Part shown: piece by piece, positions 2,037 to 27,211 of the stretch
Layout of the letters: every line of letters starts with the position of its first letter
Position numbering within the stretch: position 1 is the first letter of the stretch
From: an uncultured bacterium
Lineage (GTDB): Bacteria; Verrucomicrobiota; Kiritimatiellia; RFP12; UBA1067
DNA length: 64,000 nt
Assembly: GCA_902802945.1 (NCBI GenBank)
Contig: CADCOC010000017.1
Coordinates: 17,599-81,598, forward strand
Reading direction: 5' to 3'
Notes under the pieces: model-generated
The model's input: only the letters and a program-made list of their open reading frames with translations
The model's database searches: none
What the model was told of the DNA's origin: nothing
Translations under genes and position numbers: made by a program

Positions 2037-2071
2037 GTTAGTGGTTAGTAGTTAGTGGTTAGTGGCTAGTG
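2037..2071. repeat. Five tandem heptanucleotide repeats (GTTAGTG GTTAGTA GTTAGTG GTTAGTG GCTAGTG) filling the intergenic gap
   Basis: Read directly. The array starts immediately after the TGA at 2034-2036 and runs into the start region of the next gene. The 7-nt period places TAG stops in all three frames. Confidence 0.9.
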
Positions 2072-2074
2072 GAA

Positions 2075-3031: not shown

Positions 3032-4624
3032 ATGAGACCGATAGAGACATCAACGAGCGACTTTGCCGACCTCCGCAGGAACGGCACGATCTACGTTGAC
3101 AAGACGGCGTGGTTCCACCGCCTTGCCAGCGACATGGGACGGAAGATATGTTTCCTTTCGCGCCCGCGCCGCTTTGGCAAGTCGCTGATGATCACAGCCC
3201 TCAAGGAGATCTTCAGCGGCAACCGCGAGCTGTTCGACGGACTGGCAATTTCCAAGACGGACTGGAAGTGGGAGAAGTGGCCTGTCATCCATTTCAACTT
3301 CGGGGATGCCGATCCCACAAGCGTTGAGGCATTCGACCGCGATTTTGGGCCCAATGTAAGGAGACGTCTCGAAAGCGCTGGGTTCGAAGGCTATGATGAC
3401 GCGAGGTCGCCTGGTTTCAACTTCGGCAATGCCATTGACGTTCTTTCGAAGGAAAACGGCGGGCGCGGGGTCGTGATACTCATCGACGAGTACGACGCGC
3501 CAGTCTCGCACGCCCTTTCCGACCTGCCGCGCGCGGAAGCGATACGCGACAGGCTCTCCGCTTTCTACAGCGTCATGAAGGATCGCACGGGGTCGATCCG
3601 CTTCATGATGATGACGGGCGTCTCGAAGTTCACCAAGATGTCGGTATTCTCGTGCCTGAACAACATCGTCGACATCTCCATGCGCAGGGAGTACGCCACG
3701 ATGCTCGGCTACACGGAGGAGGAGCTTGAGGCGAACTTCGATGAGCATCTGCACGAACACGCCTCGATAATGGGGTTGTCCTACGAGGACTACCGCGCCG
3801 AGATGAAGCGGTGGTTCAACGGCTTCAGGTTTTCGCCAAGCGACCCGACAACGGTTTACAACCCAATTTCAATCGCGCTGACGCTTGATGCGAAGGAGAC
3901 GTTCTTCCGCTCCACCTGGTCGTCCACGGGTCGCGCGTCGTCGCTGATGAACTGCCTGAAGCGGTGGGACATGCTCGCAATCGACCCGGAGCGGACGAAG
4001 AACGTTACGGATCAGGAGTTTGACGTTACCAACCTTGCGGACCTGAAACCGATAGGAATGCTTTTCCAGACTGGATACCTGACCATCAAAGACTACGACG
4101 CCGGGCTTTACACCCTGGGCGTGCCGGACGAGGAGGTACGCCAGGACCTCAACCTGCTCATGGCCGGCGTGGCGGCGGACGAGAGCGTGGCCTGGGCCTC
4201 AAGTCTTGGCGCGAAGCTCCGCGGATGCGACTGGAACGGTTTCTTCGCGGGCCTCAAGTCGCTCTACGCGAAGATGGCGTACGGCTCCACCGAGTCGTCC
4301 GTCCACGAGAACTCCTACGCGCGCTGCCTTTCGTTCCTCCTTGCGGGGAGCGGGTTCCGCTTCACGATGGAGGACGTGCAGGCGAGCGGGCGCGCCGACA
4401 TCGTGGCATCGCACGTCAACGGCGTGTTCATCTTCGAGCTGAAGGTGGGCGAACCCGTTGACCGCGCCTTTGCGCAGATACGCAGGAAGAACTATGCCGA
4501 GCCATACCTCGCCTCCGGCAGTCCCATCTGGCTCATCGGCCTTTCCTTCGATCCCGACTCGCGGCTTCTCGTTGAAGCTGCCGCAGAACCGTATTTCACC
4601 CCCAAAAAGGAGGACAGACAATGA
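3032..4624 (+). CDS. AAA-ATPase-like protein with C-terminal PD-(D/E)XK nuclease-like domain (PF09820/PF08011-type architecture)
   Basis: N-terminus TIYVDKTAWFHRL...FLSRPRRFGKSL is the typical opening of the 'predicted AAA-ATPase' family. The C-terminus has GRADIVAS...VFIFELKVG, a D...ExK nuclease-like motif. The stop overlaps the next start (ATGA at 4621-4624). Confidence 0.8.
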   Translation: MRPIETSTSDFADLRRNGTIYVDKTAWFHRLASDMGRKICFLSRPRRFGKSLMITALKEIFSGNRELFDGLAISKTDWKWEKWPVIHFNFGDADPTSVEAFDRDFGPNVRRRLESAGFEGYDDARSPGFNFGNAIDVLSKENGGRGVVILIDEYDAPVSHALSDLPRAEAIRDRLSAFYSVMKDRTGSIRFMMMTGVSKFTKMSVFSCLNNIVDISMRREYATMLGYTEEELEANFDEHLHEHASIMGLSYEDYRAEMKRWFNGFRFSPSDPTTVYNPISIALTLDAKETFFRSTWSSTGRASSLMNCLKRWDMLAIDPERTKNVTDQEFDVTNLADLKPIGMLFQTGYLTIKDYDAGLYTLGVPDEEVRQDLNLLMAGVAADESVAWASSLGAKLRGCDWNGFFAGLKSLYAKMAYGSTESSVHENSYARCLSFLLAGSGFRFTMEDVQASGRADIVASHVNGVFIFELKVGEPVDRAFAQIRRKNYAEPYLASGSPIWLIGLSFDPDSRLLVEAAAEPYFTPKKEDRQ

Positions 4625-7600
4625 AACTGAATGCGATGATTGTAGGCAAGGCGCGGCGAATCGCCGCATCCCTCGTCGCGCTTGCGGCGATGTTCGCGAC
4701 GTCCGCCGCGATGGCGGCGGTCAACAACCTCGAAAGCTACCACTTCCGCTTCGACTTTTCGAAGGGTGCGAATGAGTTTTCGTCCTCCCCGAATTACGCG
4801 GACTTCAACTTCGTCGGTGCGAATACGGCGCCGACAAACGGGCCTAACGGAGCGTCGAGCGCCGCGACAACGACAAGCACGTCGTGGAAGCCGTTCACTT
4901 CGGCAACGGTTCTCAGCAACAGCTGGACGATTGCCACATCGCTTTCTCCGGCAGCAGTGGACAACGCCGTCGTGTTCAGCGTAGGACGTCTGAACACGGG
5001 CGGAACCCGGGCTGTTGCGATATGCACATCCAGCGACAAAAGCAAGCTTCTCGTGCGGCTGATGTATCGGAGCGGAAGCACCATTACGTGTACCGAAAAG
5101 GAGATGACGGGGCTTGGCGATGTCACGCAGGGGTTTCATACGCTTGTCGTCGCGTATCAGTCCGATGCTGATAACCACGGTACACTTAAGTTCTACTGGG
5201 ACGGTGCCGAGAAGCAGTCCCACAAGTATTCATCAGACACCAGGTGGTTTGGGGTTCCGGCCAATCCTGGCGGCATCCAGTTCAATACGCTTGTTTCAAG
5301 GGGCAATTATACTGAAAACGGCGGCAAGACTTTCGTTTACGAAAACGGCATCCACTCCTTTTACGACTTCCGTTTCTACAGCGGAGATTTTGCTGCTGCC
5401 GACGCGACGGCATACGCTGCGCTCTATCCATGCACCTACCCGTTCCGTCCGAGCGCATACGTGGAATCGGGTGCGACGAGCACGACTGCCAACGCGACCG
5501 TTGGCAACTACATCGACACTGGCTATCTTGCGCAAGGTGCGACAACGCGCTTTGCGGCGGACTTCCAGTTCCTTGACGTGCGCGGGCAGCAGCGAATCTT
5601 CGGCGCACGCGGCACTTTCGTTCAGGGACTTTACATTAACGGTAGTGCTGCAACCGGCGGCAAACTTGCCTGGAATTTCATGGGGGCTGCCAAATGGGTC
5701 AGTATGAATGTCGATGCCGCAAGGTTTCGGCAAATCGCGACGTTCGACCGCGTGGGAAAAACCATCGCCGTCACGAACTACGACGATCGTGCGCAGTTCT
5801 ACTACAATAACAATCAGGCCGATTTCCTGAAAGACACGAGCAACGCCGATAGCACCACTTACCTCTTCGCGGAAAACAATTCAGGTGCCAAATGTTGTGG
5901 CAAGGCGCGCATCTACTCCTTCGAGGCGGACGAGAACGGCTCCCCAGCCGCATTTTTCGCACCCGACATGGATAACGGCGAGGCGGGCTTCAGGAACATC
6001 ATCGACGGCTCGTTCAAGGGCGACGGCAACAAGAACAACAACCCCGAACGGACGCTCCGGTTCTACAACGGCGTCGGCTGCGCGGACGACTACAAGTACG
6101 AGAATTCCACGCTGTATGCGAAGCTGTACGCATCTTCCGATGACGGCGGCACTGTGAGCGTCGCAGAAGGCACTGTGGCGGTATTCGCCGAAGGGTGGGT
6201 TCCGCACGGCGGCACACTCGCGCTTTCGGCGACTCCGCCCGCCGACATGGAATTCAAGGAATGGACGGGCGATACGTGGGCGATTGCGAATGGTTTCAGC
6301 AAGACGGACGCTTCCATTGAGGTGTCAACGCCCTACGCCGTGCAGCTGCGCGCGACGTTCAAGCCTGCTGCGAATGCGTTGCTCACCATCGCCGCCGACG
6401 GTGCGAACGCCGTCAACTGGAGTGCCGCCGATTGGCGTTCTGTCGATGATGCCTCCGTTGCAATCTCTGCGCCGATTGACAAGGAAGTGACGGTCATCGC
6501 CCACAAGAGCGTGACGCTCACCCTTGACGCCGACGTTTCGCTGAGCAAGTTCATCGTGCAGGCGGATGACAACTGCGTTGTCACGTTCGCCTCAGGCACC
6601 GGCGGGTCGTTCTACGCGAGCGAGGTGGTCGTCTCGAACGGCGTCCTCAAGCTGGGGGCGGATGGCATTCTTGGCGCGACTCCAAAGGTGGCCATCAAGG
6701 ACGGCGGCACGTTCGACTTCAACGGCAAGGTGGTCGGTGACGGCGAGGTGGCGTCCGGGAAGATTGTGACCGAGTTCCACATCGCGGGCGCTGGCGCGGG
6801 TAACTGGCCGTGGGCGCTCACGTCTTCTGCGAACATGACAAACAGCAAGAATGTCGGCATGCTCCACTTGGACGCCAATGCGACGGTCGGCGGCGCAAAC
6901 GCGCTGTGGCTGGGCGTGCGCAATGGCGCTGAATGGAGCGCTGCCAACAAAAACCTGAACCTCAATGGCTTTACGCTCACGAAGACGGGCACAGGAACGC
7001 TACAAGTCCGCAGGCCCTACTCGAGGAACGAAGGGACGATTGACGTGCAGTCTGGATCGGTGAAGGTGTCTGGCTGGAGCAACGCAAATGCGGCGTATGG
7101 AGAGAGCTGTGTCAGCAACATCGTGCTAATCTTGAGGGATGGGACTTCGGCGGAGAATAGCGTAGGCTATCCACTCTATTTCAAGGTGCTTGACGTACGC
7201 GGGGGCTCGCTCTCGAGTTCCACGGGTGCTTTTGGCGTAAACGAGGAAATCATCCTCGACCCGATACGCAATCCAATTTCGCTCCAGGCCGCGCCAGCGT
7301 TCGCATCCGGCGCGAAGGTCGTGCTTGCGAATTCGTATGCCGACGTCACGTGCGGCAAGCTCGTGCTGATGACGTGGAGCGGTTCGGGCACTGTCACGCC
7401 GCCCGCGTTCGACGCGTCGTGCGTGGGCGGAACGTCCGACGGCCTGACGGTCGAGACGGCGCCCGATGGCACAAGCCGCCAGCTTGTTCTGCGTGTGGGC
7501 GGCTACGAGGAGAACGCCAAGGCGATCCGCATCGCGCCGATCGGCGACTCCATCACGCAGGGCGTGACGAAGGACGACCAGGGCGACTATCCGCAGTACC

Positions 7601-9081
7601 GCACGACCATGGCGGCGCATCTTGCCGCGCATGGCTACAGGCCCACGCTGTGCGGAATCTGGAAGTACGCGGATCAAGACAAGGCGGGCGTTCACGCTCC
7701 CGATGAATGGGCGTGGCACACGGGCGTGAGCGGCGACGCCATCATCACCACGGACAAGAGCGGCGGCGTGCTGGACAACCTGCACCTCTATCTGGACGTG
7801 ATCGGCAAGCCGGACGTCATCACGCTGCTCATCGGGACGAACGACATGGGACGCAACGGCAAGTCTGCGGAGGAGACATACGTGAACTGGACGAACCTCG
7901 TGTGGGAAATCGTCCGGCAGCGGCCCGGCGTCAAGATCGTGGCCTCCACGGTTCTCGACAGGAAGGACAACTCGGACGGCGTGAAGGCCAAGGTGGCGGC
8001 GTTCAACGCGCTCCTGAAGTCCGACATGAACGCGGGCAACCTGCCCGCCAACCTGAGTCTGGTGGATCTCTTCGACGCCGTGCCGCTGGCGACGGCGGGC
8101 AACTTCTTCTCGGACGAGCTGCATCCGAACTGGCAGGGCCACGCGATCATGGCGAAGGGCTTTGCCGACGGCATCATGTCCGCCTGCCCCTATGCGTCGT
8201 TCACGCCGACGGTTGACGACACGGCGACGAACGAGGCACAGAGCCCGCTGGGCGCGTACGGCATCGACGAGCTGGCCGAGTACCGCAGCGGCTTCCGCCA
8301 TGTCTATACGATCGACGCGGCGGAGACGAATTCCTTCCCCAATTCCGGCATCGCGCCCTACACGGCGACGAATGCCGTCCTGCGGTCCAGCAAAAAGCTC
8401 GCCAAGGTGGGCTACTACATGGAGCTGGTGAGGAAGGGGACGAACCGCCGTCGGTGGGTGTGGGTGGACATGGATGCGCGCGGCAAGACGCTGGGCGACG
8501 TGTCCCTGCCGTGGGACGCCAACCCTGATCGGCCCCGGCAGTTCATCGTCGAGAAGCTGCACGTCAAGTCCAACGACAGCGCCGTCCACGCCGTCGCGCC
8601 GACGGACGACTCGGTCAGCGGCGTTTTCGAGGGAACGCCCTACAACTATGGCGCCGGCGGGACGACGGCGCAGCTTTCCGGGGCGCCGGCGAACCTGATG
8701 ACGGGCGGATTCGGCTGGAACGACAACATGACCGGCACGTCGAGCGGGTACGGGTGTTTCCAGATGCACCGCATCTTCACGGCTGAGCAGAAGGCGGCGG
8801 CCGGCGTCCCGCACGATGCGGAGGTTCTGTTCGCGTGGAACAGGTGGGGTTCCAACAGCGACAACCCAAACCACGCCGACGACATCGGCATCGGCACGTA
8901 TGCGTGCCATGCGGCCGGAGTCATCAATTCATCGAGGGAAGGCAACCTGGACTACACGCAGACCGCGAACGGGCAGGGGAACCTGGCCGACACGGTGTCC
9001 GCCAAGGCATATCAGGTGCGTCGAATCGAGATTTGGGTGGTGGAGCCGCCGCCAAAGGGCGTCATGATTATCGCATACTGA
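4621..9081 (+). CDS. Giant secreted multidomain protein: LamG-like + lectin-like module + InlB-B-repeat-like + PATR-like repeats + SGNH/GDSL esterase + unknown C-terminal domain
   Basis: Signal peptide AASLVALAAMFATSAAMA. LamG-like opening NLESYHFRFDFSKG. Module from YVESGATS...YIDTGY to ARIYSFEADENG...AGFRNIIDGSF. InlB-like W..GDTWAIANGF...LRATF. SGNH blocks are IGDSITQG, LLIGTNDMG and DELHPNWQGH. The protein ends KGVMIIAY. Confidence 0.9.
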   Translation: MKLNAMIVGKARRIAASLVALAAMFATSAAMAAVNNLESYHFRFDFSKGANEFSSSPNYADFNFVGANTAPTNGPNGASSAATTTSTSWKPFTSATVLSNSWTIATSLSPAAVDNAVVFSVGRLNTGGTRAVAICTSSDKSKLLVRLMYRSGSTITCTEKEMTGLGDVTQGFHTLVVAYQSDADNHGTLKFYWDGAEKQSHKYSSDTRWFGVPANPGGIQFNTLVSRGNYTENGGKTFVYENGIHSFYDFRFYSGDFAAADATAYAALYPCTYPFRPSAYVESGATSTTANATVGNYIDTGYLAQGATTRFAADFQFLDVRGQQRIFGARGTFVQGLYINGSAATGGKLAWNFMGAAKWVSMNVDAARFRQIATFDRVGKTIAVTNYDDRAQFYYNNNQADFLKDTSNADSTTYLFAENNSGAKCCGKARIYSFEADENGSPAAFFAPDMDNGEAGFRNIIDGSFKGDGNKNNNPERTLRFYNGVGCADDYKYENSTLYAKLYASSDDGGTVSVAEGTVAVFAEGWVPHGGTLALSATPPADMEFKEWTGDTWAIANGFSKTDASIEVSTPYAVQLRATFKPAANALLTIAADGANAVNWSAADWRSVDDASVAISAPIDKEVTVIAHKSVTLTLDADVSLSKFIVQADDNCVVTFASGTGGSFYASEVVVSNGVLKLGADGILGATPKVAIKDGGTFDFNGKVVGDGEVASGKIVTEFHIAGAGAGNWPWALTSSANMTNSKNVGMLHLDANATVGGANALWLGVRNGAEWSAANKNLNLNGFTLTKTGTGTLQVRRPYSRNEGTIDVQSGSVKVSGWSNANAAYGESCVSNIVLILRDGTSAENSVGYPLYFKVLDVRGGSLSSSTGAFGVNEEIILDPIRNPISLQAAPAFASGAKVVLANSYADVTCGKLVLMTWSGSGTVTPPAFDASCVGGTSDGLTVETAPDGTSRQLVLRVGGYEENAKAIRIAPIGDSITQGVTKDDQGDYPQYRTTMAAHLAAHGYRPTLCGIWKYADQDKAGVHAPDEWAWHTGVSGDAIITTDKSGGVLDNLHLYLDVIGKPDVITLLIGTNDMGRNGKSAEETYVNWTNLVWEIVRQRPGVKIVASTVLDRKDNSDGVKAKVAAFNALLKSDMNAGNLPANLSLVDLFDAVPLATAGNFFSDELHPNWQGHAIMAKGFADGIMSACPYASFTPTVDDTATNEAQSPLGAYGIDELAEYRSGFRHVYTIDAAETNSFPNSGIAPYTATNAVLRSSKKLAKVGYYMELVRKGTNRRRWVWVDMDARGKTLGDVSLPWDANPDRPRQFIVEKLHVKSNDSAVHAVAPTDDSVSGVFEGTPYNYGAGGTTAQLSGAPANLMTGGFGWNDNMTGTSSGYGCFQMHRIFTAEQKAAAGVPHDAEVLFAWNRWGSNSDNPNHADDIGIGTYACHAAGVINSSREGNLDYTQTANGQGNLADTVSAKAYQVRRIEIWVVEPPPKGVMIIAY

Positions 9082-9105
9082 GGATTCTCATCATAAGGAG
9101 ATTAT

Positions 9106-10875
9106 GTGGGGTTGACGAGAAGAGGATTCCTGAAGGGGGCTGCGGTCGGCGGCGCGATGTTCGCGCTGCCGCGCCTTGCCCGCGCGCAAAGCGCCGGCTC
9201 GGCGTACTCTGTGGCCGTTCTCGGCGATACGCACTTCGACCATGCGCTCCAGCCGGAGTTTGTCGCGTCGTACGGCGACTTGACGGAAGACGTGTCGGCA
9301 GCCGACATGGCGCGCTATACGGCGCAATCGACCTATCATGCCAATTGGGTTGAGAACAACCAAACGCACTTCAAGGAGTTTCTGCGCAACGGCGACATGT
9401 GGCGCGAGCGGTGTCCAAGCCTCGTCGCGGCGAGCGCGGCGCTGGCGGCATCCAACCCCACGCGCTTTCTCCTCCAGGTGGGCGACCTCGTGCAGGGGGA
9501 CTGCGGCAAGGCAACCGTGCACAAGCAGATGCTCCAAGACGCCGTGGCGGCCATTCGCGGTGGATTCCCGTCGGGGATTCCATTCCTGACGGTGCTTGGC
9601 AACCATGATATCCGGGGAACGGGTGCGCGGAACACCTACCTCAATTTCGCCCAGCCATTCATGGCCGCTGAAATCGCGAACCTGACGGGCGTGACACCTG
9701 CTGCGACGGCCTACCCGGTGTGTTCCTTCCGCCTCGGAGACGATCTCTGGGTGTTCTGCGATTTCGAGACGGTCGACATGAATCCGATCTGCGACGTGAT
9801 CGACGCCGATCCGTCGGCGCGGCACGTGTTCCTCGTCACGCACGGTCCGTTCACGACATGCGCCGCATGCACGAGCATTTATAACGCGCGCTGGCGCCTC
9901 GCCGGACGTGCGGGGAGCGAGGCTTCGCGTCCGCGCCTCTACGAGACGCTTTCGCGCCGCCATGCAATTGTTTTTTCCGGACATACGCATAAGACGGACT
10001 ACTACTGGCATCGGAACGAATACGGTGGATTCGCCGAGATGACCGTCAACTCCGTCTGGAAGAGCGAGGACCTTGCGACATCCGTTCCGCTCCACGACAA
10101 GGTGGACGACTACGTTTCTCCCTTGTCGAATGCTGATTACAAGAAGGAGATCGCCTACTTCCGTCCCGGGTTGAGGAGGTATTTCCACAACGAAGCGGCG
10201 GGACACTACCGGCTCAACGTCTCGGACGACGTGGTGACGATGGAGTTCTATCCTGGCGCAGCTACAACGCCCGCCCGTATCTTCACGATGTGGACGAAGG
10301 AGTCCGCCAATGGAAGAGGGTGGGTTGACGAGCGCGCGCTCGTGACCGGGACGACGGGCGCCTGGTCGCAGAACGTCGATTACGACTGGGATACCGACAA
10401 GGCGGCCATCGCGGGCGACCGCACCTTCACGCCCAATAAGCAGTCCAAGGGTAAGTCCGCCACGGTGACCGTCAAGATGCAGTTCACCGATATGGCGACC
10501 ACAGTTGACGCACCGGAAGGCGTCCAGGCCGCGGTGCAGCTCGGCGTGAACGGGCTTTTCCAGGTCTGGACGAGAACGGGGAACGGGGAACAGGGAACGG
10601 GGAACTGTTGGGTGGACGTTGAGGCCGATGGCGTGACGCCTCGGGCGGGCGTGGAATACACGTTCCGCTTCAAGATCGACTACGGGACGCGCCTCTACAC
10701 CGTTTCCGTGAAGAACGCGCACGGGAGCTTTGTGCCGCTCGGCGCGAACGGCGAAACGTCTTTTGCACTCGCATCGAACGCCACGCGCCTTTCTTCCGTG
10801 CGGTTCAAGGGCGGCGGCGTACTCACGTCGCTCAGGGGCGATTACGCCAGGGGGCTTGGCGTGGTCATACGGTAG
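9106..10875 (+). CDS. Tat-exported metallophosphoesterase with C-terminal beta-rich domain
   Basis: GTG start 6 nt after AAGGAG. Twin-arginine signal LTRRGFLKGAAVGGAMFALPRLARA. Metallophosphoesterase motifs are LGDTHFDH, VGDLVQGD, LGNHD, VTHGPF and SGHTHK. The protein ends RGLGVVIR. Confidence 0.9.
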   Translation: MGLTRRGFLKGAAVGGAMFALPRLARAQSAGSAYSVAVLGDTHFDHALQPEFVASYGDLTEDVSAADMARYTAQSTYHANWVENNQTHFKEFLRNGDMWRERCPSLVAASAALAASNPTRFLLQVGDLVQGDCGKATVHKQMLQDAVAAIRGGFPSGIPFLTVLGNHDIRGTGARNTYLNFAQPFMAAEIANLTGVTPAATAYPVCSFRLGDDLWVFCDFETVDMNPICDVIDADPSARHVFLVTHGPFTTCAACTSIYNARWRLAGRAGSEASRPRLYETLSRRHAIVFSGHTHKTDYYWHRNEYGGFAEMTVNSVWKSEDLATSVPLHDKVDDYVSPLSNADYKKEIAYFRPGLRRYFHNEAAGHYRLNVSDDVVTMEFYPGAATTPARIFTMWTKESANGRGWVDERALVTGTTGAWSQNVDYDWDTDKAAIAGDRTFTPNKQSKGKSATVTVKMQFTDMATTVDAPEGVQAAVQLGVNGLFQVWTRTGNGEQGTGNCWVDVEADGVTPRAGVEYTFRFKIDYGTRLYTVSVKNAHGSFVPLGANGETSFALASNATRLSSVRFKGGGVLTSLRGDYARGLGVVIR

Positions 10876-10896
10876 GGAAGAGCAAGGGAGACAACC

Positions 10897-13800
10897 ATGT
10901 TAAGCGTGCAACACAGAACAAAGGCGCACCTTTCCCTCGCGGTCCTGCTCGCGGCATCCGCCGCAACGGCGGCGGTGGGCAACCTCGAAAGCTACCATTT
11001 GCGACACGACTTCTCGACCGGGGCACGCGTGTTTATCGGCGGCCCGAACTGCCCGACGGACTTCATAGCCGACACTTCGACGGACAGCATGGCGGTCGTA
11101 GGGCCGAACGGCCCCGACAGTGCCATGCATGTTGGTAATTGTGCCGGTCAGTTGTCCATAAATGGTGTTCAGGTCAACAGCAACGATTCCTCTAGTACAA
11201 AAACTACGGATCTCGCCTTGAACACGAACGCCTGGACGCTCGCGATGTCGTTCAGACCAGGTAACGTCGAAAAGGGCATGTTGTTCTCAATTGGACGCTT
11301 GAACGGCGGTAAAAGCAGTGGCCGCATCGCCATCACGGTCTGTTCTTCATCCGACCCAAGCAAGCTGTATCTTCAGGAGTTCTACCGGGGGGCTGATGCA
11401 TACGTTCCTGAGAAGGGAAATGCTGTCGAGCTGACCGGGCTTGGCAACATGACGAACGCTTTCCATACGCTTGTGATGGTGTACTCGCCGTCGGACAAGA
11501 CGATAACGCCATACGTGGATGGAGCAAAGAAAACGGTGTTTACGCTCTCTTCCAAGACGACGACCAGTCGCGCTGTGGGCAACGCCTTCCACTACGGCTC
11601 GTTCCCGTCGATTACGGGAGACGTGACCGGATTCTCCCGGTCCTACACGAACAACGACGTGGCGTTCTACGACATGCGCTTCTACTTCGGCGCGTTCTCC
11701 GATGCCGACGCGGCGGCATACGCCGCGCTCTATCCGGCAGACCGCATGGGCTCGCCGTTCCGTCCGAACGCGTACATCGAGGCGGGCGCGACGAACACGG
11801 TCAGCGACGCAAGAAATATCACGACGCCCGTGAGTTATGTCGATACGGGATACATTGCAAAGAAGGGCACGGAGTTCGTCCTCGACTTCCAGTACTTGGA
11901 CTGCGCGACAATCCAGCAGTACGCCTTTGGCATCTGGAATGGCGACGCAAACTCGACCCCGACCGTGGACGGACTTACGCACTGCTTTTACATCAACACT
12001 AACAAGGGTTTCGCCTTCACCAAGTTTTCCGGGACCTCCGCCGACTGGCATGCGATCACGGCAAACAATGCAGCCGACCGTGTTCGCCGCATCGTGACAG
12101 TGAAAAACAAGGACACTTCCGACACGGGGTCAACTGCGACGATCCTGGCTTGGTCGGATCGTTCGACGATGGCAACCGCAAGCATAACCAAACCCCATTC
12201 AGTTGACGCAATACGCAGCACCTACCTTTTTGCAGTCAGTGCCAATGGTACGCCCAAGCGGTTTACCAAGGCGCGCATCTACTCCTTCGAGGCGGACGAG
12301 AACGGCGCCCCAGCCGCATTTTTCGCCCCCGACATGGATAACGGCGAGGCGGGTTTCCGGAACATCATCGATGGCTCTTTCCACGGCGACGGCAACAAGA
12401 ACAACAACCCCGAACGGACGCTCCGTTTCTACGACGGCGTTGGCCGCGCAAGCGACTACAAGTACGAGGGCAACACGCTCTACGCGAAGTTGTATGCCAC
12501 CTCCGGCGAAAACGGCACGGTGAGCATCGCGGGCGGCTCGGCGGCGGCCTCCGCCGAGGGCTGGGTTCCGCACAGCGGCACGCTCACGCTCACTGCGGTT
12601 CCCGATTCTGGATTCAGTTTTGATTGCTGGGAGGGTGACACGTGGGCGATTGCGGATGGCTTCAGCACGACGGACGCAACCATTGAGGTGTCCACCTCGT
12701 ATGCCGTGCAGCTGCGTGCAACGTTCAGGCGTGACGCCAGTCTCACCATTCCTGCCGGAGGCACGGTAGTCTGGAGCACTGGAGAGTGGACGGCGGCGGG
12801 TGTGGCCGTCCCGGCCCCTGTGAGCGGGACGGCGATGGTCAACGTGACAGGAGAGGCAACGCTCACGCTGGACGGAACGGCTTCGTTGGGCTCAATTGCC
12901 GTCAATGGCGGAAGCGGCGCGAAGCTGACGCTTGTCACGGCGGCCGACGCGGCCTTCAATATTGGAAACCTCGTCCTCAGCGGCGGCGTGTCGCTTGAAG
13001 TTCCGGCGGAAACCCTGACGGAGGGAGCGACGTTTGGGACGATTACGTCATCGGATCCTGGCGGCGTTCTGGTGATCGACGTGCCGGAGGGCGAATCGTT
13101 CACCAACGAGACGACGACCATTTCTGGCGGCTCCAACCTCCAGGTGTGGAAGACGGGCGCGGGAACGCTGACCATGACGAAGGTCAACTTCGGGTTCGGC
13201 GGCAACAACGTGACCTCGCTCGTCGTCAAGGCGGGCATTGTCCGGCAAGGGACGCCCAACAACGCGACGTGCGGAGCGAATGGCTCGCGCATCGTTGTCG
13301 AGGACGGCGCACAGTTCGACGTGAACGGCACCGGCAACACGGTTTACTACGATTTCACCATTTCCGGATCTGGCCCCGACGGACTCGGCGCGATCTCGAA
13401 CAAGAAGACGGTTTCAAACGTGTACGGCACGGCGTATCTCATGCGCGACATTGAGCTGGCGGACGACGCGGCGATTGGCGGCACGTCGTATGTCAGCCTG
13501 AAGTTTGGCGACTGGGTGGCCGGCAATATAGTGATGAACGGCCATGCGCTGGCGCTAACGAACGCCACGGTCTATGCGGGGAACAGGACGTACGTCGGCG
13601 AGGGTCGCATCGAAATCGGCGGCGGGGCGGCGCTGTCGTTCTACCAGCACAACTCCTCGGCCAGCAACTGCGTGGTGACGGTTTACGGCAATCTGAACCA
13701 GAACGCGGGCGGATTTACGGCGGTCAAGTCCCTCGTCTTCGAGAACGGCGCGAGTTTCTGGTCCAAGGCCACCACCGGACATCCGACCACGATTGTGTCC

Positions 13801-14151
13801 GACACGTACGCGCCGAACATGAGTTACACGGGGAGCGAATTAACCGGCCCGATCGTCCAGCTTGGCGACGCGCAGCATCTCACGCCGACGCTTGACCTCT
13901 CGCGCTTCTGCACGAACGGAGTCGAAGTGGTGTTTGCCGCCAACAATACGACATTCCAGCCGGGCGCCACGGTGTCCGTGAAACTCGGCGACCGTACCAT
14001 CGGCGATCAGGACGGCAAGAAGGTCGCCAGCTGGTCCGTCAGGCCGCAGGGCGTCAAGTTCGTCTGCGGCGACGAGGGAAGGAACTGCATGTTCGCGGCG
14101 GAAGCCGACGGGCTGTACATCTACAGAGGCTTCTCCATTTTCCTGTATTAG
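10897..14151 (+). CDS. Giant secreted protein, paralog of 4621-9081 (LamG-like + lectin-like module + InlB-B-repeat-like + PATR-like repeats)
   Basis: AGGGAG ribosome-binding site, then ATG. Signal peptide LAVLLAASAATAAVG followed by NLESYHLRHDFSTG. There is a near-identical block to 4621-9081 (KARIYSFEADENGAPAAFFAPDMDNGEAGFRNIIDGSF...). The protein ends RGFSIFLY. Confidence 0.9.
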   Translation: MLSVQHRTKAHLSLAVLLAASAATAAVGNLESYHLRHDFSTGARVFIGGPNCPTDFIADTSTDSMAVVGPNGPDSAMHVGNCAGQLSINGVQVNSNDSSSTKTTDLALNTNAWTLAMSFRPGNVEKGMLFSIGRLNGGKSSGRIAITVCSSSDPSKLYLQEFYRGADAYVPEKGNAVELTGLGNMTNAFHTLVMVYSPSDKTITPYVDGAKKTVFTLSSKTTTSRAVGNAFHYGSFPSITGDVTGFSRSYTNNDVAFYDMRFYFGAFSDADAAAYAALYPADRMGSPFRPNAYIEAGATNTVSDARNITTPVSYVDTGYIAKKGTEFVLDFQYLDCATIQQYAFGIWNGDANSTPTVDGLTHCFYINTNKGFAFTKFSGTSADWHAITANNAADRVRRIVTVKNKDTSDTGSTATILAWSDRSTMATASITKPHSVDAIRSTYLFAVSANGTPKRFTKARIYSFEADENGAPAAFFAPDMDNGEAGFRNIIDGSFHGDGNKNNNPERTLRFYDGVGRASDYKYEGNTLYAKLYATSGENGTVSIAGGSAAASAEGWVPHSGTLTLTAVPDSGFSFDCWEGDTWAIADGFSTTDATIEVSTSYAVQLRATFRRDASLTIPAGGTVVWSTGEWTAAGVAVPAPVSGTAMVNVTGEATLTLDGTASLGSIAVNGGSGAKLTLVTAADAAFNIGNLVLSGGVSLEVPAETLTEGATFGTITSSDPGGVLVIDVPEGESFTNETTTISGGSNLQVWKTGAGTLTMTKVNFGFGGNNVTSLVVKAGIVRQGTPNNATCGANGSRIVVEDGAQFDVNGTGNTVYYDFTISGSGPDGLGAISNKKTVSNVYGTAYLMRDIELADDAAIGGTSYVSLKFGDWVAGNIVMNGHALALTNATVYAGNRTYVGEGRIEIGGGAALSFYQHNSSASNCVVTVYGNLNQNAGGFTAVKSLVFENGASFWSKATTGHPTTIVSDTYAPNMSYTGSELTGPIVQLGDAQHLTPTLDLSRFCTNGVEVVFAANNTTFQPGATVSVKLGDRTIGDQDGKKVASWSVRPQGVKFVCGDEGRNCMFAAEADGLYIYRGFSIFLY

Positions 14152-14177
14152 CCTCTGGTAGGTAGTCGATCACCGAT

Positions 14178-14239
14178 CTTGTTGTTGTACGCTTGCTGTC
14201 TTTTCGCGTACGACAGCAAGCGTACAACAGCAAGTTTTT
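14178..14239 (+). terminator. Rho-independent terminator: 23-bp stem (one G-U pair), 11-nt loop, TTTTT tail
   Basis: cttgttgttgtacgcttgctgtc / ttttcgcgtac / gacagcaagcgtacaacagcaag / ttttt, lying between the convergent genes 10897-14151 (+) and 14243-15190 (-). Confidence 0.8.
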
Positions 14240-14242
14240 CGG

Positions 14243-15190
14243 TCACGTTTTCTGATACAGGTTGCGGAAGTCCCGCATCGTCATTGAGTAACGCTTCTTG
14301 AACAGGTTCTTGAGGTATGTGGGATTGGCGTAACCGCAGGCCGCAGCGATCAAGTCCATCTTCTCCCGCGTAGTGGCGAGGCGGCGCTTCACCTCGTCCA
14401 GTCGCCGTTCCGTGATGGCGTCGAGGATGGTGCATCCCTGCAGTTCGCGGAACCTGAGGTCGGCAAGACGTCGCGAACATTTGAGGTGCCGTACCACGTC
14501 CCTGACCCCGATACCCTCCAGCGCGTGCGCATCGATGTATGCCACGGCCTTCTGCACGAGTCGCCCGGCGTGCGACTGCTTTGCAGTGGACGCCCGCTGC
14601 ACGATCCCTTTCACCCCCACGAGGAGGATGCGCTTCTCGGTCGCTTTCCCGCGCATCATGCTGTCCAGGGTCTCGGCCGCCAGGCGGCCCTCCTCCTCGA
14701 AGTCGGGCTGCACCGAGGAAAGGCGCGGATTCGCGTTCTCGCAGATGAGCGTATCGTTGTCCACGCCAAGCACGGTCACTTCGCGCGGAACGGCGATGTG
14801 CCTTGCCGCGAGGACCTTCACGAGATCGAACGCGCGGTCGTCGTTCGCGGCAAGGACTGCGGCGGGGTGCTTCAGTTTCGTGGCGGCGTCCGGGGCGAAG
14901 AGCTCCTCGCACCAGAGCCCGCTGTCGTTCAGCTCTCGCCTGAACGCCGCGAAGCGTGCACGGCTCCAGTCCGTGACCGGATCGGAATGCAGAAAGGCGT
15001 ATGAGCGGGCATGGCCCTGCCCAAGCAGGAATTGCGCAGCCTCGCGTCCGATGGTGTCCGCTGAGTTGCGGATGAACGCGATGTTCGCGGAGCGCATCTC
15101 CAGCGCCGCCGAGTGGGTGTCCATCACGATGGTCGGGATTTCGGCCGCAGCTGGCGTTGGAATCTGGTAAGACCGCGACACTTCCGGCAA
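14243..15190 (-). CDS. XylR-like AraC-family transcriptional regulator (sugar-binding-like domain + AraC HTH), probably 5'-truncated
   Basis: C-terminal AraC HTH: VRDVVRHLKCSRRLADLRFRE...IAAACGYANPTYLKNLFKKRYSMTMRDFR. The N-terminal ligand-binding-like part is about 60-70 aa shorter than I expect for XylR-type proteins. The ORF opens only with TTG (15190) or an internal ATG (15124), and it abuts another gene remnant. Confidence 0.7.
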   Translation of the reverse strand: MPEVSRSYQIPTPAAAEIPTIVMDTHSAALEMRSANIAFIRNSADTIGREAAQFLLGQGHARSYAFLHSDPVTDWSRARFAAFRRELNDSGLWCEELFAPDAATKLKHPAAVLAANDDRAFDLVKVLAARHIAVPREVTVLGVDNDTLICENANPRLSSVQPDFEEEGRLAAETLDSMMRGKATEKRILLVGVKGIVQRASTAKQSHAGRLVQKAVAYIDAHALEGIGVRDVVRHLKCSRRLADLRFRELQGCTILDAITERRLDEVKRRLATTREKMDLIAAACGYANPTYLKNLFKKRYSMTMRDFRNLYQKT

Positions 15191-15399
15191 CGGTGAACGT
15201 GAAGATTTCGGCTGCGGACGGGAAGCGTCCGAAGGGCGGGACGTATGTCCTCACGACGTGCGGCGGCTTCGACGCGGAAGGCGTGACTGTCCAGCTCGCG
15301 GCGGGTGCGCCGGATTGGGTGAAGAGCCTTTCCGTCAATGATGACGGCAATCTGGAACTGGCCGTGAAGCGCAAAGGCTTTACGCTCATCGTCAAGTAG
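15157..15399 (+). pseudogene. Orphan C-terminal fragment (~75 aa) of a giant surface-protein paralog
   Basis: ...GGTYVLTTCGGFDAEGVTVQLAAGAPDWVKSLSVNDDGNLELAVKRKGFTLIVK matches the C-terminal domain and tail of the intact paralogs. There is no ATG, no signal peptide and no upstream body. Confidence 0.75.
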
Positions 15400-15404
15400 C
15401 CAAC

Positions 15405-15534
15405 GGCAACGGGCAAGATGCCCGTTGCCCCAGTTGCGGGCGAGACGCCCGCCACCCCGATAACGGGCAACACCCCGACAACGGGCGAGACGCCCGCCAC
15501 CCCGATAACGGGCAAGATGCCCGTGGGGCGGGCG
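15405..15534. repeat. Array of five short GC-rich hairpins (REP-like), including a 33-nt direct repeat
   Basis: Perfect hairpins GGCAACGGGCA-aga-TGCCCGTTGCC (15405-15429) and GCGGGCG-aga-CGCCCGC (15436-15452). gggcgagacgcccgccaccccgataacgggcaa occurs at 15438-15470 and again at 15483-15515. ACGGGCAAGATGCCCGT occurs again near 15507-15524. Confidence 0.8.
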
Positions 15535-15610: not shown

Positions 15611-15709
15611 TTCCCCAAAATCATGTGTCTTGGCGCAACTTTGGGGAAAAATACGCACAAAATACTTTCATACTTGCCCAAAGTGCTGTGGTTATGATAT
15701 ACTTTGGGC
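15611..15709 (+). promoter_or_regulatory. Two 9-bp inverted repeats sharing a CCCAAA/TTTGGG core; the second brackets an extended -10 (TGaTATACT)
   Basis: TTCCCCAAA(15611-19)...TTTGGGGAA(15640-48). GCCCAAAGT(15676-84)...ACTTTGGGC(15701-09), with TATACT at 15698-15703. AGGAG then ATG 15734 follow. Confidence 0.5.
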
Positions 15710-15733
15710 AGCTATAAACTAGGAGCTGATACG

Positions 15734-17149
15734 ATGATTGGTAGAAAACACGAAATTGAACAATTAATTGCTACTTACGAATCAGGTCAATCTGAGTTCG
15801 TTGCCGTATATGGGCGGCGGCGCATTGGAAAGACGTTTTTGATTACCGAGGCATTCGGCAATCGATTTGCGTTTCACCACACTGGATTACGCGAGGGGGG
15901 GACAAAAAAGCAACTTGAGCAATTCCGTCTGTCGCTTCGCCAACAGGGGTATTATGATTGTCCGCGCATAAAGGACTGGCTGGAGGCGTTCTTTGAGTTG
16001 GAGCGTTTTCTGGAGAAAAGTCCGGCTCAACGGAAGGTCGTTTTCCTTGATGAAATCCCTTGGCTTGATACGCCTCGTTCAGGATTCTTGTCCGCTCTTG
16101 AGTCGTTCTGGAACGGGTGGGCCGTGTTCAGGAAAGACATCGTTCTTGTCGTTTGCGGTTCCGCCACGTCCTGGATTATCAAGAACATCATCCGAAACAA
16201 GGGTGGGCTCTACAACAGGGTGCGCACGCGGATCAAGCTCTTCCCGTTCACGCTTGCCGAATGTGAGAGCTATGCGAATTCCGAACTCCACCTCGGGTAT
16301 GGGAGGAGGGAGATCATGGAATGCTACATGGCGCTTGGCGGAGTGGCGTACTATTGGAGCCTTCTCAGGCGCGGATTGAGTCCGGCACAGAATTTCGACG
16401 CACTGTTCTTTAGTCCGCAGGACGGGCTCCGTACCGAATATGACGAACTCTACCGTTCGCTTTTTAGAAATCCTTTGCGGTACATGGAGGTCGTTGAACT
16501 TCTTGGGACGAGGAGAACAGGCTATACGCGAGACGAGATGATACGCGGGCTCGGAACTGTCAGCGGCGGCGATCTCACGAAGATTCTGGCAGACCTGGAG
16601 GAATGTGGTTTCGTGCGGAAGTACATGCCGTCAGGCCACGGCAAAAACGGCGGAGTCTATCAGCTCGTTGACGGCTACACGCTGTTCTATTTCTCCTTCG
16701 TCAAGGGGAACTCTGCGCGCGACGGCGATTTTTGGCAGCATTCTGTTGGAGATGGGCGTTTGAACGCATGGCGTGGCTTCGCGTTCGAGCGCGTATGCCT
16801 TGCGCATGTCGCGCAGGTAAAGGCCGCTTTGGGAATCTCCGGAGTCAAGACGGAAGCATATTCGCTTCGCGTCAGTCCAGACGAAAACGGACGGGGAGCC
16901 CAGATCGATTTGCTTATTGACAGGCGCGACGGCATCGTCAACTTGTGCGAGATGAAGTATGCAAACGGGAAGTATTCCATCACGGTCGATGAGTCTGAGC
17001 GGATAAGAAATCGAATAGAAGCCGCAAGAAAGCTGTTCGGCAAGAATCGTACCATTCATCTTACCATGATTACGCAAGATGGCATCATCCGTAGCCCGAA
17101 CAGCTGGGATGTCCAGTCCGTCATCACGCTTGACGACCTTTTCCGGTGA
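15734..17149 (+). CDS. ATPase (archaeal-ATPase/ORC-like P-loop) with C-terminal DUF234-like PD-(D/E)XK domain
   Basis: MIGRKHEIEQL...VAVYGRRRIGKTFL is the Walker A. VVFLDEIPW is the Walker B. The C-terminus has AQIDLLIDRRDGIVNLCEMKY, a D...ExK motif. AGGAG lies 8 nt upstream of ATG 15734. Confidence 0.85.
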   Translation: MIGRKHEIEQLIATYESGQSEFVAVYGRRRIGKTFLITEAFGNRFAFHHTGLREGGTKKQLEQFRLSLRQQGYYDCPRIKDWLEAFFELERFLEKSPAQRKVVFLDEIPWLDTPRSGFLSALESFWNGWAVFRKDIVLVVCGSATSWIIKNIIRNKGGLYNRVRTRIKLFPFTLAECESYANSELHLGYGRREIMECYMALGGVAYYWSLLRRGLSPAQNFDALFFSPQDGLRTEYDELYRSLFRNPLRYMEVVELLGTRRTGYTRDEMIRGLGTVSGGDLTKILADLEECGFVRKYMPSGHGKNGGVYQLVDGYTLFYFSFVKGNSARDGDFWQHSVGDGRLNAWRGFAFERVCLAHVAQVKAALGISGVKTEAYSLRVSPDENGRGAQIDLLIDRRDGIVNLCEMKYANGKYSITVDESERIRNRIEAARKLFGKNRTIHLTMITQDGIIRSPNSWDVQSVITLDDLFR

Positions 17150-19015: not shown

Positions 19016-19114
19016 AGGGGTCTAGGAATCGTGTAAATTCGGCTTCGGAGGGGTCTAGGAATCGTGTAAATTCGACTTGCGAGGGGTCTAGGAATCGTGA
19101 TATAATATGCGCCG
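19016..19114 (+). repeat. Three direct repeats at exact 33-bp spacing (starts 19016, 19049, 19082); the third merges into TGaTATAAT (-10 at 19101-19106)
   Basis: aggggtctaggaatcgtgtaaattcggcttcgg / aggggtctaggaatcgtgtaaattcgacttgcg / aggggtctaggaatcgtgatataat, immediately upstream of the ATPase gene at 19138. Confidence 0.9.
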
Positions 19115-26563: not shown

Positions 26564-27211
26564 ATGAAAATCGAGGAACTCATTGACAGGGGCGACGAGA
26601 CGGGGCAGCGCATTCGCGAAACGCTGAACGTCCTGCTTGAATCTCCATACTTCTACAAAACGGACGACGAACGCCTGTTTCTCGTCTTGACGCGCTACAA
26701 GCGGGCGTTTGAGTCGTTCTTCGACAAGTTCTTCGGCTGGACGCTCGTGATGGACGCGAAATGCGCGCGTCTCTACAAGCCGAAATGGTTCAACGAGAAG
26801 ATCACGCTGCCCAACCGCGACATGTTCGGCTTCACGAAACGTGACGAGTGCATGGCGTTTCTGCTGCTCATCGAGTTCTTCGAACGTGAATGTCGCGAGC
26901 AGGGCGTGACGGCGGATGACCGCGAAAATCTGCGCTTCCGTTTCGGCGACTGGCTTGAATACGCGGCGGCTCGCTTCCGCGCGTTGATGCCAGATAAAGA
27001 GGAGAACTACACCGATGAGCGCGTGAGGCAGATTTTGCGCGACATCATGCCCGATCTCGTGCGGTATCGTTTTCTGCAAAAAGTGAGACCTTCCGCCGAC
27101 GACAGCGTGAGCGAGGCCGAGACGATCTTCGAGTGTCTGCCTGCCCTCTGGCACTATCAGGCCGCGCAACTCAATCAGCCGGTTGCCGTGGAGGAGGAAA
27201 GCGCATCATGA
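26564..27211 (+). CDS. Small subunit of a condensin-like system (JetB/MksE-like; DUF4194/DUF2398-type)
   Basis: 215 aa, acidic helical protein (LFLVLTRYKRAFESFFDKFFGWTLVMD...MAFLLLIEFFERE). Its stop overlaps the start of the SMC-like ATPase (ATGA at 27208). Confidence 0.6.
   Translation: MKIEELIDRGDETGQRIRETLNVLLESPYFYKTDDERLFLVLTRYKRAFESFFDKFFGWTLVMDAKCARLYKPKWFNEKITLPNRDMFGFTKRDECMAFLLLIEFFERECREQGVTADDRENLRFRFGDWLEYAAARFRALMPDKEENYTDERVRQILRDIMPDLVRYRFLQKVRPSADDSVSEAETIFECLPALWHYQAAQLNQPVAVEEESAS

Follow-up and report, generated by a model that had tools for sequence, protein, structure and literature searches.

Introduction

The region of Kiritimatiellia DNA analysed here raises the question of why several large and otherwise unrelated proteins should finish with nearly the same few hydrophobic residues. 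The window, i.e., the whole stretch of 64,000 nucleotides that was analysed, derives from an uncultured bacterium (assembly GCA_902802945.1, contig CADCOC010000017.1). The original prediction, made from the sequence alone, listed seven proteins described as exported that share a C-terminal tail formed by Gly, hydrophobic residues and a final Lys, Arg or Tyr, and inferred a family-specific recognition element for sorting or anchoring. In the following sections, we examine whether such a tail is real, whether it behaves independently of the domains that precede it, and which known systems it resembles. In brief, gut and rumen Kiritimatiellia end many of their large exported proteins with a free seven-residue tail that behaves like a previously undescribed address label for the cell envelope or surface, although its function is inferred and has not been shown.

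The C-terminal tail and its frequency

The observation is real and far beyond chance. All seven tails are found at the positions originally given and each is followed directly by a stop codon (Table 1). All three stop codons are used, the next genes start 20–25 nt downstream, and the next gene or unrelated DNA follows, so that read-through into a longer TM-type signal is rejected. Moreover, both the codons and the downstream DNA differ between copies, which rules out a DNA-level repeat or a terminator encoding the tail. The conserved unit comprises 7 residues and not the 8 originally listed, and can be written as G(-7)-[FLM]-x-[IVL]-[IVLF]-[VIL]-[RK>YQH](-1)-COOH, while position -8 is only biased towards R/K/P/S and the tail is often preceded by Pro-x-Gly. 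Among 106 diverse tails, G is at -7 in 88%, the residues at -6, -4 and -2 are always hydrophobic, and the last residue is R/K in 81 (76%) and Y in 11 (10%).

The regular expression of the original prediction matches 5 ORF ends but only 1 of 79,310 internal six-frame positions in the window, which gives about 0.007 expected at ORF ends. In a larger Kiritimatiellia sample (782 ORFs, 356,481 residues), the G-anchored motif is present at 33 ORF ends, against 0.10 expected from 47 internal hits, an excess of about 300-fold. However, it is found at none of the ends of 290 ORFs of co-resident Bacteroidales, although the internal motif frequency there is about the same.

Table 1. Tail-bearing proteins of the 64,000-nt window. 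L numbers denote sampled loci.
Positions	Strand	Protein	Tail	Tail positions	Relatives
Ends at 2036	+	N-terminus cut by the window edge	GMMLIVR	2013–2033	Same gene in L002 at least 1,645 aa long
4621–9081	+	Sec-signal protein of 1,486 aa; SGNH/GDSL esterase domain and InlB-B-like repeat	GVMIIAY	9058–9078	Ortholog in L003 keeps GVMVIAY
9106–10875	+	Tat-signal protein; purple-acid-phosphatase/PhoD-like metallophosphoesterase, disordered linker and predicted LamG/LNS beta-sandwich	GLGVVIR	10852–10872	About 20 long orthologs keep the tail; about 100 short homologs lack both the extension and the tail
10897–14151	+	Sec-signal protein of 1,084 aa; N-terminal module, InlB-B-like repeat, predicted right-handed beta-helix and small C-terminal beta domain	GFSIFLY	14128–14148	106 of 145 diverse relatives end in the tail
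15157–15399	+	80-aa ORF made only of a C-terminal hairpin module plus tail; no signal peptide; probably a remnant	GFTLIVK	15376–15396	
50581–57522	+	Sec-signal protein of 2,313 aa; Spi inhibitor domain, C10 peptidase domain and CHB_HEX_C domains	QFMVIVK (variant)	57499–57519	Relatives end in GFTILIR, GFAIFLR or GFLILFR
57543–60836	+	Metallophosphoesterase fusion of 1,097 aa with a Tat-like N-terminus (NRRRFIQ)	GLTIVVK	60813–60833	

Some details of the original prediction have to be corrected. The label of seven exported proteins was wrong, since the N-terminus of the first protein was not seen and the 80-aa ORF at 15157–15399, which overlaps the end of a convergent AraC/XylR-type gene, is a remnant or mini-ORF and not a demonstrated exported protein. 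A homolog search with this fragment returned only 7 near-identical fragments, from which little was learned. The protein at 50581–57522 has Q instead of G at -7, although some of its relatives have G there. Moreover, the label of PATR-type adhesin is not supported for the proteins at 4621–9081 and 10897–14151, which give no hit to PF12951/TIGR02601 but only an InlB-B-like repeat and a beta-helix fold. The only hit to these repeat models is a sub-threshold single repeat in one L075 protein, and a Foldseek search with the beta-helix end of the protein at 10897–14151 gave no significant hit, the best resemblance to autotransporter passengers having E = 0.22. On the other hand, the remaining exported proteins of the window (GH127, the FAD oxidoreductase, the cytochrome-c-like protein and the beta-helix protein) do lack the tail, as originally stated.

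Distribution on exported proteins and independence from the last domain

Two outcomes had been named in advance as fatal to the idea of a recognition element, and neither occurred. The first, an equal frequency on exported and other proteins, was examined in the sampled ORFs, where the tail is found on 19/218 signal-peptide ORFs (about 9%) and on 4/398 others (about 1%), with an odds ratio of 9.4 (p = 3e-6). The gene calls and signal-peptide calls used here were crude heuristics, and the loci were chosen through homologs and not at random. The carriers are large, with a median of 1,079 aa against 423 aa for other signal-peptide ORFs, and include both Sec and Tat substrates, whereas lipoboxes are rare. 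These carriers are multidomain enzymes and lectins, including beta-helix proteins, an esterase, a C10 protease and phosphoesterases, in loci with SASA, GH109 and GDSL genes, i.e., typical surface or secreted glycan-degrading functions. No names are attached to these proteins in public annotation.

The other outcome, that the tail would merely be the last strand of one domain shared by all carriers, was rejected by BLAST of the last 200 aa, homology grouping, HMM scans and two structure models. Thirty-one tail proteins fall into 17 separate C-terminal homology groups, and 44 diverse C-terminal segments share only the Gly at -7. The preceding domains are LamG, Ig/I-set, InlB-B, PKD, choice-of-anchor Q and others, and the tail sits after whichever domain is last, as illustrated by P0203, P0212 and P0233 (P numbers denote proteins of a representative search) in comparison with the protein at 10897–14151, and by the terminal but not the internal 'DIGCYE' copy in L087. 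Two AlphaFold models, of the proteins at 9106–10875 and 10897–14151, end the last domain before the tail and give the tail pLDDT below 50, although low confidence at chain ends is common in such models and is only weak evidence that the tail is free. Moreover, the tail persists at 35–44% identity while the flanking sequence diverges. Therefore, the original interpretation of a family-specific C-terminal element, not the end of a shared domain, is supported, while secretion, attachment or processing as its function has not been tested.

By NCBIfam naming, choice-of-anchor domains precede different sorting signals in different lineages. The tail lies immediately C-terminal to such a domain, beginning 3 residues after a choice-of-anchor Q match, and in all 22 Kiritimatiellia matches the protein ends in the tail and stop codon 3–10 residues after the 'DIGCYE' that closes that module. 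The model NF041518 scores 36.6 bits (cutoff 25) on an internal copy in the L045 protein, whereas the terminal copies score 16–22 bits (E from 1e-4 to 8e-3) and end 10 residues before the stop codon. A search for signal swapping across phyla through this module returned only Kiritimatiellia and one Planctomycetales protein that continues into further domains, its patterns being too clade-specific, although one Bacteroidota-like relative with a T9SS CTD (P0272) appeared in the representative search. Regarding taxonomic distribution, a partial scan of 185,579 species genomes for one hairpin+tail+stop sub-type gave at least 75 true hits, all in gut/rumen Kiritimatiellia-type MAGs and with 10–13 per genome for this single sub-type, while the 5 hits elsewhere were all false; absence from other clades is shown only for the part that was scanned.

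Comparison with known C-terminal signals

No Pfam or NCBIfam model recognises the tail, known sorting-signal HMMs gave nothing even at lenient thresholds, and no description of such a tail was found in the literature, which agrees with the original exclusion of PEP-CTERM, LPXTG and T9SS CTD signals. The T9SS C-terminal domain of Bacteroidota (Por_Secre_tail) is likewise a C-terminal signal on Sec-exported, large, multidomain enzymes and adhesins, present on tens of cargos per genome and acting after inner-membrane export on folded cargo. It also ends in a short hydrophobic strand that closes with Lys/Arg, e.g., '...KIAIKKIIKN' in P0272. However, the CTD is a conserved Ig-like domain of 70–100 residues with its own HMMs, while this tail has 7 residues, gives no hit to TIGR04183/PF18962, follows folds unrelated to one another (LamG-like in the protein at 9106–10875), and also occurs on Tat substrates and in a PVC rather than an FCB clade. 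Foldseek on the C-terminal region of the protein at 10897–14151 finds no CTD. Whether the T9SS machinery (SprA/Sov, PorV, PorU, PorK-N) is encoded was not examined, as no complete genome was at hand, and nothing of this kind appeared among the annotated neighbours.

Similarly to PEP-CTERM/exosortase and related TM-type signals (LPXTG, GlyGly-CTERM, MYXO-CTERM and others), the tail is a lineage-specific C-terminal tag on many otherwise unrelated exported proteins and occupies the slot after choice-of-anchor domains. Nevertheless, it has no signature motif, no 20-residue transmembrane helix and no basic cluster. PEP-CTERM signals combine a PEP motif, a helix of about 20 residues and an Arg-rich C-terminus, and no hit to TIGR02595/PF07589 was obtained on the full proteins, on the short tails or on the 44 C-terminal segments. 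A search at ORF ends for a hydrophobic run of 15 or more residues followed by basic residues found only the last helices of ordinary membrane proteins. The LPXTG-like pentapeptide, helix and basic tail of sortase substrates are absent from every tail, without any HMM hit.

The outer-membrane-protein beta-signal, which is read by BamA/BamD, is also a short C-terminal beta-strand with hydrophobic residues on one face, would share recognition by strand pairing in the hypothesis presented below, and resembles the tail in that the last residue is sometimes aromatic. However, no hit to the beta-barrel translocator domain (PF03797) was found, neither AlphaFold model contains a barrel, Arg/Lys predominates at the last position, consecutive rather than strictly alternating hydrophobic residues are preferred, and the cargos are soluble multidomain proteins. 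Dockerin–cohesin and donor-strand systems (cellulosomes, chaperone-usher and type V pili) offer a C-terminal module that could attach many different enzymes to a common partner, and a one-face-hydrophobic strand is suited to completing a partner's sheet. Nonetheless, dockerins are Ca-binding domains of about 70 residues, donor strands belong to pilins, and no scaffold or acceptor protein was found in the sampled loci. Type I secretion signals do not apply, since their substrates lack an N-terminal signal peptide and are exported directly from the cytoplasm, whereas tail proteins carry Sec or Tat signal peptides.

Proposed role of the tail and alternative explanations

The heptapeptide G-[FLM]-x-[IVL]-[IVLF]-[VIL]-[RK]-COOH is most likely a lineage-specific, minimal C-terminal sorting or attachment tag of gut and rumen Kiritimatiellia, a reading that we hold with moderate confidence. 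In this view, the cargo would cross the inner membrane by Sec (unfolded) or Tat (folded) and lose its signal peptide; as it is rarely lipidated, it would otherwise be a soluble periplasmic protein. The tail would stay exposed as a free hydrophobic strand hanging off the last folded domain, where a dedicated envelope component encoded elsewhere in the genome would bind it by beta-strand augmentation. The side chains at -6, -4 and -2 would fill a groove, the Gly at -7 would allow the turn away from the last domain, and the terminal carboxylate with its Arg/Lys would fix the register. Binding would then commit the folded cargo to outer-membrane translocation and/or hold it on the cell surface. 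While the motif, its strict C-terminal position, its concentration on exported proteins, its restriction to this clade in the part of the genomes that was scanned, its independence from the preceding domain and its unstructured state in models rest directly on the analysis, the reading by a partner, the binding by strand addition and the resulting surface display or secretion are inferences. No experiment or proteomic data bear on localisation or on cleavage of the tail, and five hydrophobic residues are too few to span a membrane, so no known anchoring chemistry applies directly. Moreover, no candidate receptor or processing enzyme was found among the neighbouring genes, which encode XylR/AraC regulators, MFS transporters, oxidoreductases, esterases, GH109 and AAA ATPases, with no secretins, Omp85 proteins or peptidases and almost no pseudopilins. 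It is possible, although tentative, that the tail is the address label of an undescribed outer-membrane translocation or surface-attachment pathway of these PVC bacteria for folded Sec- and Tat-exported cargo, functionally analogous to the T9SS CTD but reduced to a 7-residue linear tag, or alternatively the first linear targeting signal for a type II secretion system.

Among the alternatives, an assembly role is unlikely but stands ahead of the others. The tail could be a docking or assembly tag and not a translocation signal, acting like a minimal dockerin and adding a strand to a scaffold or to other tail proteins (donor-strand or steric-zipper style) to build multi-enzyme surface assemblies for glycan degradation. 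This would fit a highly beta-prone I/V/L/F segment between gatekeeper residues (Gly before, Arg/Lys after), a hydrophobic face as in donor strands, cargos that are enzymes and lectins of carbohydrate-utilisation loci in rumen and gut bacteria, and dozens of carriers per genome. However, no scaffold-like protein with repeated acceptor domains was seen in about 1.8 Mb of loci, seven residues is very short for specific high-affinity docking, and passage across the outer membrane would be left unexplained. Less likely still is an intramolecular cap, i.e., a final edge strand folding back on the last domain to protect it from aggregation or proteolysis without any partner. The tail usually follows a beta-strand and a turn and could form a hairpin, and low AlphaFold confidence does not exclude packing, but the same heptapeptide follows unrelated folds, the same domains lack it when internal, homologous domains in other phyla do without it (e.g., L105 and P0272), and neither the strict preference for a free C-terminus nor the clade restriction is expected of a fold element.

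Two further readings are considered very unlikely. Periplasmic tail-specific, PDZ-containing proteases such as Tsp/Prc and DegS read free, apolar C-termini by strand addition, and an exposed apolar strand could serve as a degradation or processing signal controlling the turnover or maturation of large exported proteins. Nevertheless, the charged last residue is unlike known Tsp or DegS ligands, a constitutive degron on about 9% of exported proteins, all of them large surface-type enzymes, has no obvious rationale, and no protease gene is linked to the tail genes. Mimicry of the prepilin N-terminus, with handling of the tail by type II secretion or type IV pilus components, is suggested by eye, since the consensus [KR]-G-[FLM]-[TSM]-[LIV]-I, as in KGFTLIVK and RGFSIFLY, resembles the K-G-F-T-L-I-E cleavage/methylation motif, and type II secretion is the only outer-membrane secretion route reported for cultured Kiritimatiella (PMC5148204). 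However, the motif is at the wrong end of the protein, has V/I/L in place of the Glu at +5, and is followed by a stop codon instead of a transmembrane helix, while prepilin peptidase acts at the cytoplasmic face of the inner membrane on N-terminal anchors. Only 1 prepilin-like ORF was found among 835 sampled ORFs, not linked to tail genes, and Gly followed by beta-branched hydrophobic residues is a simple pattern that can arise by convergence.

Concluding remarks

C-terminal sorting signals such as LPXTG, PEP-CTERM and the T9SS CTD were each recognised first by this kind of sequence pattern, and each then led to a dedicated machinery. The tail described here is unusually short for a bacterial sorting signal and, if functional, would interest the protein-secretion field and could be used to display proteins on these bacteria. 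It can be found with a simple regular expression, or added to annotation as a new HMM or rule, and the peptide can be used as bait for the machinery that reads it. Gut and rumen Kiritimatiellia are abundant, almost uncultured glycan degraders whose secretion biology is essentially unknown and, in this context, a 7-residue tag that marks about one in ten of their exported proteins defines their probable surface or secreted proteome.

Verification of the Shared C-Terminal Tail

Translation of the seven ORFs reproduces every C-terminal tail of the original prediction, and each tail is followed directly by a stop codon. The stop codons are TGA, TAG and TAA, while the downstream DNA corresponds either to the ribosome-binding site and start of the next gene or to unrelated sequence, and the tails use different codons. 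Therefore, this is similarity at the protein level and neither a DNA repeat nor a read-through artefact. The regular expression put forward in the original prediction matches 5 ORF ends in the window but only 1 of 79,310 internal six-frame positions, which gives about 0.007 expected at ORF ends. Thus, the observation as such is real, although some of its details need correction. The presumed fragment at 15157-15399 is an 80-aa ORF with a TTG start codon and without a signal peptide, which overlaps the 3' end of a convergent XylR/AraC-type gene by about 34 nt. Its few relatives are C-terminal pieces of larger proteins, and it is conserved as a short ORF in other contigs (the sequences P0121 and P0122, as well as the gene at 8440-8646 of locus L001). 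It represents either a remnant of a larger adhesin-type gene or a genuine mini-protein made only of the hairpin and tail. Moreover, the label "PATR" that had been given to the two big proteins of the window is not supported by Pfam or NCBIfam. Short tandem repeats sit directly after the stop codons of tail genes, and a separate array lies further along the window.

Coordinates of the features discussed in this part (positions in the window)
Position	Strand	Feature
2037-2072		Tandem repeat GTTAGTG x5, directly after the stop codon of the first tail gene
2993-4624		Gene with AAA-ATPase_like and PDDEXK_9 domains
10897-14151		Tail-bearing protein with an InlB-B repeat region, a beta-helix and a small beta domain
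14243-15190	minus	XylR/AraC-type regulator, convergent with the 80-aa ORF
15157-15399		80-aa tail-bearing ORF
15437-15523		Tandem repeat, 27-nt unit x3.6, directly after the stop codon of the 80-aa ORF
15704-17149, 19138-20505, 30851-32200		ATPase_2/AAA_14/DUF4143 genes
19016-19099		Separate tandem array, 33-nt unit x2.5
27133-30705 and 33372-34673		Wadjet-like defence genes between the two clusters of tail genes: one an SMC/SbcC-type ATPase (JetC-like), the other with DUF2399/JetD_C domains
47998-50565		Exported protein combining a hydrazine-synthase-alpha middle domain with a cytochrome-c-like domain; no tail
60850-60870		Tandem repeat CAATTACCCA x2, directly after the stop codon of the last tail gene

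Distribution among Lineages and Exported Proteins

The window belongs to a Kiritimatiellia bacterium (PVC superphylum) known only from rumen and gut metagenomes, and the closest species genomes are RUG10619 and RUG14841, with 74% and 72% identity on the phosphoesterase, respectively. In order to examine the spread of the tail, 82 loci around homologs of that phosphoesterase were retrieved, about 60 of them of Kiritimatiellia type and 21 from Bacteroidales of the same habitats. These loci were chosen through homologs, no complete genome was covered, and both the gene calls and the signal-peptide calls were heuristic. Enrichment on exported proteins had been named in advance as a condition that the proposed recognition element should fulfil, and the tail is indeed found far more often on signal-peptide-like ORFs than on the others.

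Occurrence of the strict tail in the retrieved loci and length of the carriers (crude gene call)
Measure	Result
Strict tail, Kiritimatiellia-type ORFs	21 of 606
Strict tail, Bacteroidales ORFs	0 of 290 (p = 5.6e-4)
Tail on signal-peptide-like ORFs	19 of 218
Tail on other ORFs	4 of 398 (odds ratio 9.4, p = 3e-6)
Median length, tail proteins	1,079 aa
Median length, other signal-peptide ORFs	423 aa

In an extended sample of 782 ORFs and 356,481 residues, the motif anchored on its Gly residue is located at 33 ORF ends, against 0.10 expected from its 47 internal occurrences. In Bacteroidales the internal rate is about the same, yet no ORF ends with it. Furthermore, a degenerate DNA pattern for one common sub-type (D-G-[LI]-Y-x3-G-hydrophobic-x-hydrophobic(3)-[RK..]-stop) was run over a collection containing one genome for each of 185,579 species, giving more than 107 hits before the whole collection had been covered. 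Among 80 of these hits, 75 end with true stop codons, nearly all closing long ORFs, in gut/rumen Kiritimatiellia-type MAGs, several of which contain 10-13 per genome. The 5 hits in other taxa are all false, owing to TGG instead of a stop, an internal stop, or ORFs of fewer than 30 codons. One of the MAGs, SRR12081301_bin.91 (loci L055, L073, L107-L108, L127, L129, L133-L135, L144, L172 and L177), is labelled "uncultured Lentisphaerae" in its record, yet it carries at least 11 hairpin+tail proteins like the Kiritimatiellia MAGs; either the label is loose or the tail extends into a neighbouring lineage.

Residue Composition of the Tail

The composition of the tail was derived from 106 tails of mutually diverse relatives (below 50% identity) of the 10897-14151 protein. 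Positions -6, -4 and -2 are hydrophobic in every tail of this set, as was required by the selection rule, which 106 of 145 relatives pass, and together they form one face of a beta-strand. An independent set of 37 tails from the loci gives the same picture. In addition, a sub-variant found in relatives of the same protein (P0155, P0185, P0204, P0211, P0213, P0229, P0236, P0264, P0266 and others) has a polar or aromatic residue at -3, as in GFTIYFR, GLTVYVR, GLRVRIK and GLCIRIK, which gives a strictly alternating pattern and suggests that only one face of the strand is read.

Residues at each position of the tail, counted from the C-terminus (counts of 106 unless given as a percentage)
Position	Residues
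-7	G 88%
-6	F 40, L 29, T 12, M 9
-5	variable
-4	I 59, V 24, L 19
-3	I 36, F 20, L 16; tolerates Y, S, R, H
-2	V 40, I 29, L 17, F 16
-1	R 63, K 18, Y 11, Q 10, H 4
-8, -9	rich in R, K, P, S

Independence from the Preceding Domain

The possibility that the tail is simply the last strand of one conserved domain, which had been stated beforehand as an outcome that would overturn the proposal, was examined by several approaches, and the tail is not just the end of a domain. BLAST of the last 200 residues finds no shared C-terminal domain among the seven window proteins, while 31 tail proteins fall into 17 C-terminal homology groups. Likewise, 44 diverse segments comprising the last 90 residues share only the Gly at -7, and their preceding domains are InlB-B repeat, Ig/I-set, Big_9, LamG, PKD-like, choice-of-anchor Q and others. 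The Tat phosphoesterase is modelled as a PAP/PhoD-like catalytic domain, a disordered linker and a LamG/LNS sandwich (pLDDT 84-91), whereas its tail, residues 581-589, falls below pLDDT 50. The last 350 residues of the 10897-14151 protein are predicted to fold confidently (pTM 0.86) into a beta-helix and a small beta domain, where the last modelled strand is GLYIY (338-342) and FSIFLY (345-350) is the only segment below pLDDT 50.

The tail tracks the chain end rather than a domain. About 100 short phosphoesterase homologs lack both the lectin extension and the tail, while about 20 long ones keep both. The module that is internal in the 10897-14151 protein is terminal in its relatives P0203, P0212, P0233, P0237, P0280 and P0286, where it is followed directly by the tail. 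Moreover, in locus L087 one very long ORF (over 1,900 aa, ending at about 8452) contains two copies of the beta-helix/"DIGCYE" (choice-of-anchor Q-like) module, and only the terminal copy carries the tail.

Cargo and Genomic Context

The context of the tail points to sorting. In three proteins the tail starts 3 residues after a choice-of-anchor Q match, and all 22 Kiritimatiellia proteins found through that module end in the tail 3-10 residues after "DIGCYE". In the NCBIfam naming convention, choice-of-anchor domains are those that precede different sorting signals in different lineages. A Planctomycetales homolog (locus L105) continues into other domains, and a Bacteroidota-like relative of the InlB-B repeat region (P0272) ends in a canonical T9SS CTD. 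The cargo domains are SGNH esterase, C10 protease with Spi inhibitor, CHB_HEX_C, metallophosphoesterases, F5/8-type C, DUF1565 beta-helix, LamG, DUF2341 and trans-sialidase-C-like. Signal peptides are mostly Sec/SPase I, whereas true Tat signals occur on the phosphoesterases and lipoboxes are rare.

The neighbouring genes encode XylR/AraC regulators, MFS transporters, FAD and GFO/IDH/MocA oxidoreductases, SASA and GDSL esterases, GH109 and AAA ATPases, that is, glycan-utilisation loci with no secretion machinery. The gene with AAA-ATPase_like and PDDEXK_9 domains recurs next to tail-bearing genes in several genomes (loci L002 and L162, plus two more loci), and ATPase_2/AAA_14/DUF4143 genes (the L154 family) do so too. 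The role of these genes is unknown, although they may be mobile or defence elements that flank these variable loci.

Comparison with Known Systems and Proposed Function

No PEP-CTERM, LPXTG, GlyGly-CTERM, T9SS CTD or autotransporter model matches the tail proteins, even at E up to 1, and there is no transmembrane stretch and no barrel in the models. The closest functional analogue is the T9SS CTD, which is also a C-terminal signal on many large Sec-exported enzymes and whose last strand also ends in hydrophobic residues followed by Lys. However, in this case the signal is 7 residues long and is attached to unrelated folds, in a PVC lineage. No paper describing the tail was found in the literature, and public records give these proteins no names.

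Apart from sorting or attachment, the tail could be a docking or assembly tag, an intramolecular cap, a degron or a prepilin mimic. The last of these rests on the resemblance to the prepilin K-G-F-T-L-I-E motif, which is not supported, since the motif is located at the wrong terminus, has no Glu or helix, and pseudopilin genes are not linked to tail genes.

The tail is real, statistically overwhelming, independent of domain and, in the part of the species collection that was scanned, specific to this lineage, while its function is deduced from this distribution and context, with no experimental evidence behind it. The interpretation of the tail as a C-terminal recognition element is supported, since neither of the two outcomes named in advance as refuting it was observed. 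Because Tat cargo is exported folded, whatever reads the tail must deal with folded proteins, which is inferred to fit a secretin- or T9SS-like route or a surface receptor better than an Omp85-type threading route. With moderate confidence, the most likely function of the tail in these Kiritimatiellia is that of a minimal C-terminal sorting or attachment tag, read by strand addition by an unidentified envelope partner.
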